A stretch of 64,000 nucleotides of DNA from assembly GCA_018015315.1 (NCBI GenBank), contig GCA_018015315.1_3629.1. One strand, written 5' to 3'. Numbering within the stretch: the stretch's first letter is position 1; each line of letters begins with the position of its first letter. Of this stretch, positions 44,168-56,872 are shown piece by piece. Source of the DNA: a phage. Under the pieces are notes generated by a model, which searched no databases, had not been told where the DNA came from, and saw only the letters and a list, made by a program, of their open reading frames with translations. The position numbers were made by a program, and so were the translations under genes.

Positions 44168-45544
44168 TTATTCAGTCATTGCAACAGCATTGGTGGATTT
44201 AGAACCAACTTTGTCCAGAAGGACGTTGATCCGGATACGAACGAAGTGCAGGGCGTTGTTATACACCAGTTCTACTTTCACACCTTCCAGAACACGAGCA
44301 GCCAACTGATTGGTTGGAATCTCTGCACGTTTAGGAACTGTGATGATCGGGTCGTAGAACACATTGTTGTCTTCGTCAAAACCTGTCAGGATCGCACCAT
44401 TCTTAATGCCAGTGTTGATTGGGTTGTTCATCAGGACAGACTTGATAACCGGAAGATCATCATCAGACATCTTCATGCTTAAACCCATGTTGGAGCGACG
44501 ATGCATGTACCCAAACATAGATTCTTCAGATCTGAACTTGATCCAGTGTGCAAAACGAATAGCGTCTGCATACTGACCTGAAGCACACTTACCTTCCCAG
44601 AAAGCACCAACACCGTTAATCATTCTGTAGAAGTTAACGTGGTTTTCCCAAATAGCCATACGCTGAGTTAAAGTCAGAGACGGTGCAATCACACCTGGCA
44701 TCTGTTTTAAGTGCAAGCTGTCGCCGTAAGACGGATCGTTGGATGCCATAGCACCTATGATACCACCCTCCGGGAAGTCCTTATCTGCACGAGGATCGTA
44801 CATGCCGACACTGTCATATTGTGCAGCTTTCAGTTTGGTGGCGATGTTATTATCTTTACCCGTCACATCTTCTGCAGTAGAGTAGACATGCAGCTTGTAG
44901 TTAGCCTGAGCCCACTTAGCACATGCTTCAATGTCGGTGTGGTCTTCATGGCACAGGAAGTACCAATTGTCACGCTCAGCATTGATCTTATCAACTACTG
45001 TAGAAGGTTTTTCAGCATTGGCGATATTTTTGATTGTATAGTTACCAGTATGGTAACCAACAGTACAGTCACCAGTGATGGTGAGAACACCTTCAGAAGC
45101 CTCTACAGTGATATCGTCCAAGTTATCATCTGCTTCGATTTTAGTCTTCATTGACTCTGCAATCTGAGTTGCAGCTGTTCCACCAGAGATAGGGACTATC
45201 AAAGAGGTATTGTAGCTACCTTTTGCAATAGTCATTACGACATCGGTATCAGCTGCGGCAGCAATACCTTTAAAATCTACAGTGGTCTTTTCTTTGGCCT
45301 GTCTGCCGATCATAACGTATTGTGGAGGGAATACACCACCAAAAGCTTTTGCTGCAAACTCATACGCTGCAGAGCCTTGTGCGAAACCATCTTCCACCAT
45401 CTGATCCAGCTCTGCATATACGCGAGCTCGCTCAGTAAAGTTGTTGTGGATAGCGATGAACAGGGGAGTTTCGAAACCTACAGTGTCAATAGGCTGGGTT
45501 CCGAGGTTAACTGTAACATCTACCACTTTATCTAAATATGGCAT
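44168..45544 (-). CDS. tail sheath protein
   Basis: 458 aa; sheath-tube-chaperone-tape measure gene order. Confidence 0.6.
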   Translation of the reverse strand: MPYLDKVVDVTVNLGTQPIDTVGFETPLFIAIHNNFTERARVYAELDQMVEDGFAQGSAAYEFAAKAFGGVFPPQYVMIGRQAKEKTTVDFKGIAAAADTDVVMTIAKGSYNTSLIVPISGGTAATQIAESMKTKIEADDNLDDITVEASEGVLTITGDCTVGYHTGNYTIKNIANAEKPSTVVDKINAERDNWYFLCHEDHTDIEACAKWAQANYKLHVYSTAEDVTGKDNNIATKLKAAQYDSVGMYDPRADKDFPEGGIIGAMASNDPSYGDSLHLKQMPGVIAPSLTLTQRMAIWENHVNFYRMINGVGAFWEGKCASGQYADAIRFAHWIKFRSEESMFGYMHRRSNMGLSMKMSDDDLPVIKSVLMNNPINTGIKNGAILTGFDEDNNVFYDPIITVPKRAEIPTNQLAARVLEGVKVELVYNNALHFVRIRINVLLDKVGSKSTNAVAMTE

Positions 45545-55960: not shown

Positions 55961-56037
55961 TGGTCTCCACGGAGTGATTCGAACACTCGACCTCCTGATC
56001 CCAAATCAGGCGCTCTACCAAGCTGAGCTACGCGGAG
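55961..56037 (-). tRNA. tRNA-Pro (anticodon UGG)
   Basis: Hand-folded cloverleaf: acceptor CTCCGCG/CGTGGAG, D-stem GCTC/GAGC, anticodon stem CCTGA/TCAGG, loop TTTGGGA, T-arm GAGTG-TTCGAAT-CACTC, CCA encoded. Confidence 0.75.
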
Positions 56038-56048
56038 TATTTACTATT

Positions 56049-56123
56049 TGGTGGCCCTGGGTGGAATTGAACCACCGTCTGGCGATTATGAGTCGCTTGC
56101 TTGAACCTTCCAGCTACAGGGCC
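56049..56123 (-). tRNA. tRNA-Met (anticodon CAU; could be Ile-lysidine type)
   Basis: Acceptor GGCCCTG/CAGGGCC, anticodon loop CTCATAA, T-arm GGTGG-TTCAATT-CCACC, CCA encoded; D-stem only 3 bp. Confidence 0.65.
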
Positions 56124-56124
56124 T

Positions 56125-56200
56125 TGGTGCTGATGGCAGGACTTGAACCTGCAACATATTGATTACAAATCAATTGCACTACCAATTGTGCTACATCAGC
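56125..56200 (-). tRNA. tRNA-Thr (anticodon UGU)
   Basis: Perfect cloverleaf: acceptor GCTGATG/CATCAGC, D-stem GCAC/GTGC, anticodon stem ATTGA/TCAAT, loop TTTGTAA, T-arm GCAGG-TTCAAGT-CCTGC, CCA. Confidence 0.8.
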
Positions 56201-56205
56201 AAAAA

Positions 56206-56304
56206 GGTGCTAGGTGATGGAATCGAACCATCTATGTATTCAACGACTACCTCGTCTATTTTCAGGATTAAAAATCCTCGCCCTTGCCAAAGGGCTTACC
56301 TAGC
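56206..56304 (-). tRNA. atypical tRNA-like gene (possible anticodon UUU, ~30-nt extra region)
   Basis: Perfect acceptor (GCTAGGT/ACCTAGC), D-arm (GCCC-TTTGGCAA-GGGC) and T-arm (GATGG-TTCGATT-CCATC), but 4-bp anticodon stem and an unusually long region before the T-arm. Confidence 0.4.
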
Positions 56305-56402
56305 TCAGTATGTTGACCATGTTGCTAGTCGGCGATGACGACTGTAACATTTGATAATCCGGTTCTGCTTCCGGCTTTCGCTTAATTACAAGGTCAACAA
56401 TG

Positions 56403-56493
56403 TGGCAGAGGATAATGGAATCGAACCATCATCGAGTCATCCTCAACGGGACGGTTTTCAAGACCGCTTGAGCACCATTGCTCCCTACCCTCT
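56403..56493 (-). tRNA. tRNA-Ser (anticodon UGA), long variable arm
   Basis: Anticodon arm GCGGT-CTTGAAA-ACCGT, variable-arm hairpin, T-arm GATGG-TTCGATT-CCATT, acceptor AGAGGGT/ATCCTCT with one G-U pair, CCA encoded; D-arm spacing unusual. Confidence 0.6.
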
Positions 56494-56610
56494 TTTATTA
56501 TAAACAATACTGATAATGACACTGATTTTCGAGCAGTTAGTGACTAGTATAAACGACGATAAATACCAATGCCATTATCTGTATGATTTATGCATCTAAA
56601 AATATAAATT

Positions 56611-56697
56611 TGGTGGGGAGTGGTGGAGTCGAACCACCCGAGTCGCAATGACAATAGATTTACAGTCTACACCGCTACCTCTACGGGATAACTCCCC
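56611..56697 (-). tRNA. tRNA-Tyr (anticodon GUA), long variable arm
   Basis: Acceptor GGGGAGT/ACTCCCC, anticodon arm GTAGA-CTGTAAA-TCTAT, T-arm GGTGG-TTCGACT-CCACC, CCA encoded. Confidence 0.7.
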
Positions 56698-56701
56698 AAT
56701 T

Positions 56702-56776
56702 TGGCACCCCGTACTGGACTCGAACCAGTGTCAACGGCTTAGAAGGCCGCTGCTTTATCCACTAAGCTAACAGGGC
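56702..56776 (-). tRNA. tRNA-Arg (anticodon UCU)
   Basis: D-stem GCTT/AAGC, anticodon arm GCGGC-CTTCTAA-GCCGT, T-arm ACTGG-TTCGAGT-CCAGT, CCA encoded. Confidence 0.75.
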
Positions 56777-56872
56777 ACTGGGTGGCTTTCTTTTACACCT
56801 TAGCCGCCAGAAAAGGTGGGAGACCATGTTTACAATATTACACTGTTAAGCAAAGTTTGTCAAGAAAATATT

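Follow-up and report, generated by a model that had tools for sequence, protein, structure and literature searches.

Does the locus at positions 56206-56304 of an rV5-like phage (Vequintavirus) encode a tRNA, and does its product read codons? Genome records disagree, giving no call, tRNA-Lys, tRNA-OTHER, tRNA-TERM or tRNA-???. The locus goes uncalled in the original annotation of rV5 and in several pipelines, and records based on tRNAscan-SE annotate a tRNA-Lys, codon AAA. Phages of this type are used in typing and biocontrol of E. coli O157 and form part of the BASEL reference collection. The original prediction, made from the sequence of the whole 64,000-nucleotide stretch of phage DNA (the window), was of a tRNA-like gene. 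We conclude that it is a real, conserved gene for a tRNA-like RNA, hereafter X, of rV5-type coliphages and their relatives.

The gene and its fold

X lies on the minus strand within a cluster of seven genes, in the order Arg(tct), Tyr(gta), Ser(tga), a spacer element, X, Thr(tgt), Met/Ile2(cat) and Pro(tgg). The RNA runs 5' to 3' from 56304 to 56208. The locus comprises the following features:

55961..56776, minus strand: tRNA cluster holding X (ARAGORN, Rfam, rV5 and Bas55 annotation)
56835..56863, minus strand: sigma-70-like promoter (TTGACA-17-TAATAT) upstream of tRNA-Arg, a consensus match only
56208..56304, minus strand: tRNA-like RNA X, 97 nt from G1 to discriminator A73 (Rfam, ARAGORN, family covariance model)
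56298..56304, minus strand: acceptor 5' strand GCUAGGU, pairing with 56209-56215 (ACCUAGC)
56280..56297, minus strand: A8, A9 and D arm GCCC-UUUGGCAA-GGGC
56264..56279, minus strand: G26 and short anticodon arm AGGA-UUUUUAA-UCCU (register from the Rfam alignment)
56256..56263, minus strand: 5' flank of the variable region, GAAAAUAG (alignments)
56243..56255, minus strand: variable hairpin ACGA-GGUAG-UCGU, closed by G49.U63
56233..56242, minus strand: 3' flank of the variable region, UGAAUACAUA (alignments; motif used to retrieve the family)
56216..56232, minus strand: T arm GAUGG-UUCGAUU-CCAUC, with a canonical T loop
56206..56215, minus strand: acceptor 3' strand ACCUAGC, A73 (56208) and CC (56207-56206), then UUUUU (sequence)

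The sigma-70-like promoter is likely the start of the cluster transcript, judging from its sequence, and the rV5 record annotates a sigma-70-type 'P(tRNA)' promoter directly upstream of the tRNA cluster. X is tightly set among ordinary tRNAs, and in relatives it begins 2-5 nt past the CCA of the preceding tRNA. The ORFs around X in the relative L043 (a 589-aa ORF and small ORFs) include none that is shared or informative as a partner.

The Rfam tRNA model (RF00005) scores X at 37.5 bits against a gathering score of 29 (E=2.7e-4 over the window), in the register that had been proposed from the letters alone. The minimum-free-energy fold is the cloverleaf (z=-4.2), and none of 200 shuffles folds as well. 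As predicted, the acceptor, D and T arms pair perfectly (7/7, 4/4 and 5/5), and the anticodon stem has four clean base pairs (AGGA/UCCU). It closes a 7-nt loop with UUU at the anticodon position, U33 and A37, and would alternatively have 5 bp and a 5-nt loop if U31-A37 closes. One nucleotide layer is missing on the 5' side of this arm: from C25 to position 34 there are 8 steps, not 9. The D arm carries G18 and G19, and its stem can be extended to 6 bp with a 4-nt loop. The gap of about 30 nt that had been noted between the anticodon and T stems measures 31 nt (GAAAAUAG-ACGAGGUAGUCGU-UGAAUACAUA).

ARAGORN calls the same interval, 56206-56304, as 'tRNA-???' with the 4-base anticodon 'atcc', so that a cloverleaf in another register, which was to count against the prediction, was formally found. 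That register (AUUUU/AAAAU) is rejected, as only 33% of its cells are paired in the orthologs and it shows no covariation; the program calls no ortholog outside Vequintavirus. No tmRNA was reported by ARAGORN, whose search includes this class, and the only tmRNA-related match in Rfam, to the permuted form (17 bits), lies over neighbouring tRNAs. An intron-containing tRNA is rejected too: in intron-bearing bacterial tRNAs a group I intron of at least about 200 nt interrupts the anticodon loop, and the extra 26-35 nt of X sit in the variable region. The Rfam scan gave no group I intron match at E<=1.

A conserved scaffold with exchangeable parts

Searches returned 150 and 181 matching phage records, and 37 distinct X sequences were collected from Vequintavirus, Avunavirus, Seunavirus, Mydovirus, the N4-like Ithacavirus, IMG/VR contigs and metagenomes. 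The family was retrieved through its 3'-flank motif, AUACAUA followed by the T-stem G, so the invariance of this motif in 37 of 37 sequences was required by the searches. A second retrieval motif, in the D arm, yielded only known members and two false positives. A scan of GTDB genomes for bacterial homologs gave a single match (Sporosarcina), which the family model rejected. The family is previously undescribed; its members sit in tRNA clusters, those of Vequintavirinae and of a small number of other phages of enterobacteria. X is not mentioned in the literature found by full-text searching, nor in the rV5, BASEL, Korf 2019 and O177 genome papers.

Comparison of orthologous loci upholds the predicted register: across 24 aligned relatives, 100% of cells in the four helices are paired, and compensatory changes occur at 11 of the 20 pairs. 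No shuffle out of 500 reaches the observed pairing and compensation, and slid controls fall to 31-46% paired. The support is strong, but as the sequences are related and their alignment was fitted to the model, the counts do not amount to independent events. The acceptor contributes compensatory changes at four of seven pairs, the D stem at three of four and the T stem at two of five, and the anticodon stem is maintained through changes from A-U to G-C and from U-A to C-G. The elbow 19:56 covaries as well, being G:C in 16 and U:A in 8 sequences (100% paired). In the T arm, the window has A-U where most relatives show G.U. A family covariance model (R1) scores X in the window at 97.8 bits and members at 81-115 bits; ordinary tRNAs reach at most 24 bits, with the cluster's own Ser and Tyr tRNAs at 21-24.

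The core of X is as constant as it is unusual. No aligned family member departs from A8, U14, U15, A20 or A21, nor from G18. A8/U14/U15 replace U8/A14/R15, and the tertiary pairs U8-A14 and R15-Y48 are absent. The over-long variable region is real and is conserved in relatives, where it spans 30-40 nt and consists of flanks around an exchangeable hairpin module. The A-rich flanks (G-AAAA... and ...AUACAUAG) are near-invariant and form the best-conserved part of X; in the 5' flank the G and AAA are invariant in the aligned family and the preceding A nearly so. The region is therefore a functional module. The suggestion of a tRNA with an insertion holds for the anatomy and fails for a recent insertion or an intron.

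The module between these flanks differs among lineages. The Avunavirus hairpin shows a compensatory change from A-U to G-C (ACGG...CCGU), and loop variants include GGUAG, GCUAG, GGAAG and AGCAG. Other lineages carry different hairpin modules, some with conserved loops of their own (GAA-YUAAC-AGUA, UUUUAGG) on covarying stems. Kissing between the anticodon loop and the variable hairpin (UCCA:UGGA; GCCA:UGGC in 4MG) fits some Seunavirus only and is rejected as a family feature; by eye, X of type-B, type-C, L041, Vequintavirus and Avunavirus lacks the complementarity.

Orthologs differ in their anticodon loop. It has 6, 7 or 8 nt and a lineage-specific sequence: YAUCAAA with A33, the 8-nt CC[ACU][UG]CCAG, CCCUCAAG, GUGAUA, UUUAUAA or UUUUUAA. 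The 8-nt NCC loops are those of Seunavirus. The closest relatives, from Avunavirus and 92% identical, have UAU and U or C at position 73, and in deeper relatives the loop has UCA with A33 or is 8 nt long. YAUCAAA is widespread and is kept across very different backbones. A73 occurs only in the lineage of the window, together with UUU. In this lineage the loop is fully canonical (Y32, U33, A37, A38), and it and the discriminator changed together, giving the identity set of LysRS; a real decoder would look like this, which counts against a mimic.

The 3' end varies too. CCA is encoded in full in the Seunavirus, Mydovirus and N4-like relatives (..GGCU-CCA), and Vequintavirus X encodes CC or CA only. 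In phage V18 the 5' half of X is deleted and the phage is still viable, so any role of X must be conditional. Descent from a particular tRNA isotype is rejected: there is no close core match among the non-X tRNAs in 276 distinct ARAGORN calls from the relatives' loci.

Codon reader or tRNA mimic

X shares with canonical tRNA (RF00005) its 7-bp acceptor, 4-bp D stem, G18 G19, 5-bp T stem, UUCGAUU loop, 19:56 elbow, place in a tRNA cluster and a score above gathering. It departs from canonical tRNA in an anticodon stem of 4 bp rather than 5, a loop unconserved among orthologs, A8/U14/U15 and a variable region of 31 nt whose single-stranded flanks are conserved. A tRNA-like regulatory RNA was another of the readings first offered; as between decoding and regulation, the family-wide sequence evidence leans away from routine decoding. 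Loops differ among relatives, so the conserved scaffold is not tied to lysine decoding.

The tRNA sets of relatives give a picture of decoding need. The set of PVP-SE1, which covers 18 amino acids, holds X beside a canonical tRNA-Gly gene and two for tRNA-Lys, and L035 carries X plus a canonical tRNA-Lys(ttt). As these isoacceptors are already supplied, we reject the view that X fills in for a missing one. X also persists where few tRNAs are kept: in the stretches of L038 and L043 that were examined, it is the sole tRNA-like gene besides a tRNA-Arg. A UCA-type X is likewise rejected as a UGA suppressor, as TGA stops are not avoided in the N4-like phage UTK0002, whose X has UCA and where TGA ends 20 of 64 CDS (31%).

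Our preferred explanation, held tentatively and with a probability somewhat short of even, takes X as a real gene whose product is an L-shaped, specialised tRNA mimic, here with a Lys-like loop, and not a routine codon reader. The RNA would be co-transcribed with the cluster and freed by RNase P and 3' trimming enzymes, and the CCA-adding enzyme would complete its CC end. The conserved flanks may form a non-standard tertiary core in place of the 8-14, 15-48 and 26-44 contacts. X would then work through its tRNA shape and rebuilt core, with the anticodon loop as a lineage-specific specificity element. The Lys-like features in the window are U33, UUU, A37, A38 and A73, and the anticodon loop of host tRNA-Lys is CUUUUAA; loop UUUUUAA and A73 would thus imitate tRNA-Lys(UUU) in this phage. 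Given this imitation, the likeliest partners would be the lysine-tRNA machinery, namely LysRS or tRNA-Lys-directed nucleases such as PrrC and PARIS AriB. X may serve as a cleavage-resistant stand-in or decoy during infection, and its role may lie in conflicts over tRNA-cutting defences. What YAUCAAA or the 8-nt Seunavirus loops would imitate is left unexplained by the idea of a decoy or stand-in.

X could instead be a working, if odd, tRNA-Lys(UUU) that is charged by LysRS, reads AAA/AAG and is immune to nucleases that cut tRNA-Lys, which is plausible and on the whole unlikely. Charging would depend on UUU and A73, and immunity on the short, different anticodon stem and the altered core. Such a decoder would account for the canonical 7-nt loop with U33, UUU, A37 and A38, for the confinement of A73 to this lineage together with UUU, for the standard G18/G19, T loop and 7/5 acceptor/T helix, and for the tRNAscan-SE-based annotation. 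ARAGORN finds no other lysine tRNA in the window, and the rV5 genome paper lists none (PMC3606486). There are parallels as well: cells under attack by PARIS and PrrC are rescued by phage tRNA-Lys, and a short-stem phage tRNA-Thr decodes and resists P2 OLD (PMC12445682). Against it stand the 5' layer missing from the anticodon arm (8 steps, not 9) and A8/U14 with a 31-nt variable region that has long single-stranded flanks. We know of no precedent for a bacterial decoder with A8/U14 and such a variable region. The UAU with U/C73 of Avunavirus and the UCA/A33 or 8-nt loops of deeper relatives also argue against it, as do the relatives that keep X beside complete canonical tRNA sets.

A broader form of the mimic reading, which we think rather unlikely, is that X belongs to a phage-specific class of L-shaped tRNA mimics with plug-in variable arms and a loop retuned for each host lineage, acting here as an anti-defence decoy. 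The loop would bait or block a tRNA-recognising host factor, in this phage the nucleases or enzymes reading the tRNA-Lys anticodon loop. The tertiary core would be re-engineered, and one module has a signature resembling the sarcin-ricin/loop-E motif (GAA...AGUA).

It is improbable that X is a structural or processing element without a tRNA-type partner, such as RNase P/RNase E punctuation or a scaffold for hairpin modules. The tight placement between tRNAs, with 2-5-nt spacers, would suit this role, as would the exchangeable hairpin modules, some with conserved loops on covarying stems. Punctuation, however, needs no invariant flanks, elbow pair, anticodon stem or YAUCAAA loop, and the transcript is already punctuated by ordinary tRNAs.

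That X is a decaying, functionless tRNA pseudogene is highly improbable. Its non-canonical features, the loss of half the gene in V18 and the lack of a call in the original annotation of rV5 and in several pipelines speak for it, but four helices and the elbow pair show compensatory changes, and the invariant blocks span genera, the unrelated family Schitoviridae and metagenomic contigs.

Selenocysteine tRNA (RF01852) calls for comparison, as many relatives of X have UCA followed by AAA, a long variable region and a D stem that may reach 6 bp around a 4-nt D loop, and lack a separate position 26. In E. coli, the loop of tRNA-Sec reads CUUCAAA. The relatives differ from it in having A at position 33 and U or A at 73, and membership of X is rejected: for the window the tRNA model wins, and the 7/5 helix, UUU and A73 do not fit. 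It is barely credible that X decodes quadruplets as a frameshift suppressor, or that it is a true tRNA of the class II or selenocysteine type. Although ARAGORN gives a 4-base anticodon (8-nt loop), many relatives have UCA with the D arm and variable region just described and the best Rfam match of relatives is tRNA-Sec (24-39 bits), the ARAGORN stem is 33% paired in relatives without covariation, those scores lie below the gathering score of 47 and are equalled by ordinary Ser/Tyr tRNAs of the same clusters, the acceptor/T helix is 7/5 and not the 13-bp 8/5 form, A or U stands in place of a G discriminator, the window loop has UUU, and a phage with a UCA-type X does not avoid TGA stops.

Relation to other tRNAs and tRNA-like RNAs

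The original prediction had also offered an unusual type II tRNA. Like a class II tRNA (Leu/Ser/Tyr), X carries an additional hairpin after the anticodon arm and before the T arm, with a covarying stem and a variable loop. The variable arm of a class II tRNA leaves the core after 1-2 nt; the hairpin of X, by contrast, is flanked by 8 and 10 unpaired, highly conserved nucleotides, and the anticodon loop has UUU, not a Leu, Ser or Tyr anticodon. With the short anticodon stem and A8/U14 in addition, X does not conform to the standard type II form.

Stable tRNA-like RNAs are known from the tRNA cluster of phage T4 (species 1 and 2, RNA C and D), and the tRNA-like domain of YrlA is a tRNA mimic. 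X may resemble these RNAs, which are non-decoding or unassigned, have tRNA-like ends and are encoded and processed with tRNAs. The only Rfam YrlA match near X is weak (25 bits against a gathering score of 69) and lies over neighbouring tRNAs.

The preferred reading of X as a mimic also recalls phage tRNAs in which an anticodon stem that is altered or shortened confers resistance to tRNA nucleases (PMC12445682, PMC11464382, PMC12409363, PMC11555353). The OLD-resistant phage tRNA-Thr has an anticodon stem shortened by a 27.43 mismatch (PMC12445682), and the nuclease-resistant tRNA-Lys of phage T5 counters PARIS and PrrC. Like them, X is phage-encoded and clustered and carries the UUU of a known target, and like the OLD-resistant tRNA-Thr it has an altered, shortened anticodon stem (PMC12445682, PMC11464382). 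Those tRNAs are otherwise canonical and have been shown to decode, whereas X, known from its sequence, has a rebuilt core and a large insertion, and its relatives carry other or non-canonical loops.

X is a candidate for how phage tRNA clusters counter PrrC, PARIS, OLD and retron PtuAB, and could be an armoured tRNA-Lys or an RNA decoy. If the decoy reading is true, this RNA would counter host defence as a decoy instead of taking part in translation. Recognising a conserved family of distinct architecture lets annotators treat the gene consistently, with a covariance model to hand, and nature here shows how extensively a tRNA core may be rebuilt with the L-shape kept. The cluster that holds X also includes Thr(UGU) and Tyr(GUA), isoacceptors attacked by the defence nucleases OLD, PARIS and PtuAB (PMC12445682, PMC11464382, PMC12409363, PMC11555353).

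A tRNA-like gene in the tRNA cluster

The window phage is an rV5-like myovirus (Vequintavirus); across the tRNA cluster it shares 99.9% identity with Escherichia phage MiataMamis and 98.4% with rV5. ARAGORN orders the cluster on the minus strand as Arg(tct), Tyr(gta), Ser(tga), a 98-nt spacer, a tRNA-like gene (here X), Thr(tgt), Met/Ile2(cat) and Pro(tgg). X sits among the tRNAs, in relatives with spacers of 2-5 nt. A candidate promoter matching TTGACA-17-TAATAT lies upstream, and in the rV5 record a promoter named P(tRNA) immediately precedes the cluster.

Features discussed in the text
56611-56697, minus strand: tRNA-Tyr(gta)
56403-56493, minus strand: tRNA-Ser(tga)
56305-56402, minus strand: structured spacer element
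56206-56304, minus strand: X
56280-56295, minus strand: D-arm hairpin of X
56049-56123, minus strand: CAU-anticodon tRNA

The RNA reads GCUAGGU-AA-GCCC-UUUGGCAA-GGGC-G-AGGA-UUUUUAA-UCCU in its 5' part and, after the anticodon stem, GAAAAUAG-ACGAGGUAGUCGU-UGAAUACAUA-GAUGG-UUCGAUU-CCAUC-ACCUAGC-A; CC and then a U run come next. Pairing is perfect in the acceptor (7 bp), D (4 bp) and T (5 bp) stems, as in the original prediction, and the short anticodon stem and roughly 30-nt gap that it described were recovered as 4 bp and 31 nt. X scores 37.5 bits with the Rfam tRNA model in the same register (gathering score 29; E=2.7e-4, whole window), and its minimum-free-energy fold is the same cloverleaf (z=-4.2). 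ARAGORN, proposed earlier as a check, calls the same coordinates but in another register, as 'tRNA-???' with the 4-base anticodon 'atcc' and a stem AUUUU/AAAAU. Among relatives just 33% of this stem's cells are paired, with zero covariation, so the 4-base anticodon is an artefact of a U-rich loop meeting an A-rich flank in Vequintavirus. A terminator scan flagged the D-arm hairpin followed by GAGGAUUUUU; the signal results from the U-rich anticodon loop, is confined to Vequintavirus and is probably no terminator.

GenBank already records the gene, inconsistently. It lacks annotation in the rV5 and MiataMamis records, is tRNA-Lys (AAA) in BASEL phages, and is tRNA-OTHER, tRNA-TERM or tRNA-???(atcc) in other public records. 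The rV5 genome paper gives six tRNAs, X not among them (PMC3606486). Full-text literature searches and the rV5, BASEL, Korf 2019 and O177 genome papers yielded no description of X, and among Rfam families none besides tRNA covers it. The family, its architecture, its modular variable arm and its lineage-specific loop appear undescribed so far. X is a clear oddity, open to testing, in phages that are widely used, and it plausibly bears on a question under active study.

The CAU tRNA is tRNA-Met according to ARAGORN and the rV5 record versus tRNA-Ile (codon ATA) in a BASEL record, and may be a lysidine-dependent tRNA-Ile2. The phage tRNA-Ser falls below every Rfam gathering score (best, tRNA-Sec at 39.4 bits, threshold 47) and tRNA-Tyr passes narrowly (29.9 vs 29); both are called by ARAGORN, and pipelines easily miss such long-arm phage tRNAs. 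About 19 'Campylobacter phage' records (MG0656xx, C. jejuni given as host) match E. coli rV5-like phages at 98-99% identity across the cluster; either the stated host is doubtful, it seems, or contaminating E. coli led to their co-isolation. In Salmonella phage SSE-121 (locus L011, 516-690) an HNH endonuclease gene is annotated ~220 bp downstream of X; phage tRNA regions often hold free-standing homing endonucleases.

Covariation and architecture of the X family

BLAST walks and motif scans gave 37 distinct relatives, from Vequintavirus, Avunavirus, Seunavirus, Mydovirus, one N4-like Schitoviridae phage (UTK0002), and IMG/VR contigs (55-148 kb) and metagenomes, human gut among them. Scanning one genome per bacterial species for homologues returned a single false positive and nothing else. 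With a covariance model made from the cloverleaf, family members reach 81-115 bits and the ordinary tRNAs of their loci ≤24 bits. When 24 sequences are aligned to the model, no cell of the 20 pairs departs from standard pairing. The comparison with orthologous loci suggested in the original prediction therefore gives 100% cloverleaf pairing, with two-sided changes in 11 of the 20 pairs (acceptor 4, D 3, anticodon 2, T 2). None of 500 shuffles reached the observed values, and sliding partners by 1-3 columns lowered pairing to 31-46%. The tertiary Watson-Crick pair 19:56 is G:C in 16 sequences and U:A in 8, without exception, and this switch argues for a real D-loop/T-loop elbow. The tRNA-shaped fold of X, elbow included, is conserved.

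Conservation sits in the flanks of the variable region and not in the anticodon. Invariant or nearly so are G1, A8, U14, U15, A20, A21 and G26, a G just past the anticodon stem followed by AAAA, and AUACAUAG leading into the T stem; all stems and the hairpin between the flanks are variable yet structured. This hairpin is modular. It is short or long without a conserved loop in the window phage, Avunavirus and many Seunavirus phages. The N4-like phage, Mydovirus, some Seunavirus and several contigs have a covarying 3-bp stem (GCC/GGC, GUC/GAC, AGC/GCU or UCC/GGA) bearing a conserved GAA-YUAAC-AGUA, where GAA facing AGUA marks by its sequence a putative bulged-G (sarcin-ricin/loop E) motif. Other contigs have a conserved UUUUAGG loop on covarying stems, and a few sequences have other inserts. 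The two modules with conserved loops were noted in the variable regions of relative loci L016 (396-500), L018, L024, L026, L035, L054 and L069.

The D region can be drawn with 4 bp and an 8-nt loop or with 6 bp and a 4-nt loop; the two extra pairs never vary. C25 lies 8 steps from position 34 versus 9 in canonical tRNA, so that the anticodon arm is one layer short; its top bears a conserved G/G juxtaposition. CCA is encoded in most lineages (…GGCU-CCA), with only CC (or CA) after A73 in Vequintavirus. The discriminator is U in every lineage but Vequintavirus (A) and Avunavirus (U or C).

Anticodon-like loop and possible roles

Classes of the anticodon-like loop of X
YAUCAAA or AAUCAAG: 4-bp stem; most diverse backbones
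8-nt CC[ACU][UG]CCAG, or CCCUCAAG: Seunavirus, Mydovirus
GUGAUA: one contig
UUUAUAA: Avunavirus
UUUUUAA: Vequintavirus

The first class is probably ancestral, since it occurs on the most diverse backbones; its anticodon position reads UCA, but position 33 is A. In UTK0002, a phage with UCA in its X, TGA is the stop codon of 20 of the first 64 annotated CDS, and an efficient opal suppressor is thus unlikely. X also does not supply a missing isoacceptor: PVP-SE1 has it besides canonical tRNA-Gly and two tRNA-Lys genes in a 24-tRNA set, and relative locus L035 has it plus a canonical tRNA-Lys(ttt), so it fills no gap. In Escherichia phage V18 (NC_041937, locus L017 366-435), a natural deletion has fused tRNA-Tyr, of which the 5' part remains, with X, of which the 3' half remains. 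The junction is a GUCGUUGA common to both genes, and tRNA-Ser and the spacer element are lost along with the first half of X. The acceptor stem of this chimera cannot form, and X is therefore dispensable for growth in culture.

The LysRS identity set is UUU plus A73, and the loop and A73 of the window X suggest a link with the lysine-tRNA machinery. PrrC and PARIS AriB attack tRNA-Lys(UUU), P2 OLD and PARIS attack tRNA-Thr(UGU), and retron PtuAB attacks tRNA-Tyr(GUA); cleavage-resistant phage tRNAs rescue infection, in one case via a shortened anticodon stem (PMC11464382, PMC12409363, PMC12445682, PMC11555353). We tentatively favor X as a specialised tRNA mimic, a decoy or stand-in in tRNA-nuclease conflicts. 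It would be co-transcribed with the cluster and set free by RNase P and 3' trimming, its CC end being completed by the CCA-adding enzyme. The A-rich flanks may build a substitute tertiary core, one candidate contact being U14-U16 opposite A44-A47, both sides invariant. Shape and core would carry the action, and the loop would confer a specificity that differs between lineages.

A genuine, armoured tRNA-Lys decoder is somewhat less probable; the fully canonical Vequintavirus loop (U33, A37, A38), found together with A73, speaks for it. Like canonical tRNA, X exceeds the Rfam tRNA threshold and has the cloverleaf and elbow; unlike it, X lacks a 5-bp anticodon stem, U8-A14/R15-Y48 and a conserved anticodon. 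A processing or scaffold element is improbable, and a pseudogene, set beside the covarying fold, still more so. Least credible is a quadruplet, class II or Sec tRNA: X has neither of the two class II features examined and no examined tRNA-Sec feature. The best Rfam match of the relatives is tRNA-Sec at 24-39 bits, a level that ordinary Ser and Tyr tRNAs also reach.

A structured element between tRNA-Ser and X

The 98-nt spacer is itself a conserved structured element, predicted to be a three-way-junction RNA with a ~70-nt invariant core inside a closing helix. The core (…AAUUAAGCGAAnG-CCGG-AAGCAGAA-CCGG-…-GnCG-UCAUCGC-CGnC-…) includes the hairpins CCGG-AAGCAGAA-CCGG and GnCG-UCAUCGC-CGnC. The closing helix is wholly different in sequence, with complementarity kept, in six lineages: lambda (GUUGUGCUG/CAGCACAAC), two lambdoid variants forming one type (UGUGGUG/CACCACA in one), P1/P7-like plasmid prophages (UUAAGAGUAUUUGGCU/AGCCAAGUGCUCUUA in P7) and three vequintavirus types (UUGUUGACCUUG/CAUGGUCAACA in rV5). 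RNAalifold finds compensatory changes in 10 of 20 pairs.

The element lies between orf-64 and S in lambda (44866-44952; 801-887 of locus L004) and directly 3' of tRNA-Ser(tga) in both P7 (locus L005, ~1490-1590) and the window phage. It is independent of X, because in the stretches examined Avunavirus, Seunavirus and the N4-like phage have X without it. It has no Rfam match and is apparently a phage RNA motif not described before. Of 5426 complete E. coli genomes 426 contain it, with 121 of the places on plasmids, and so do at least 120 IMG/VR contigs; none of these copies is annotated.
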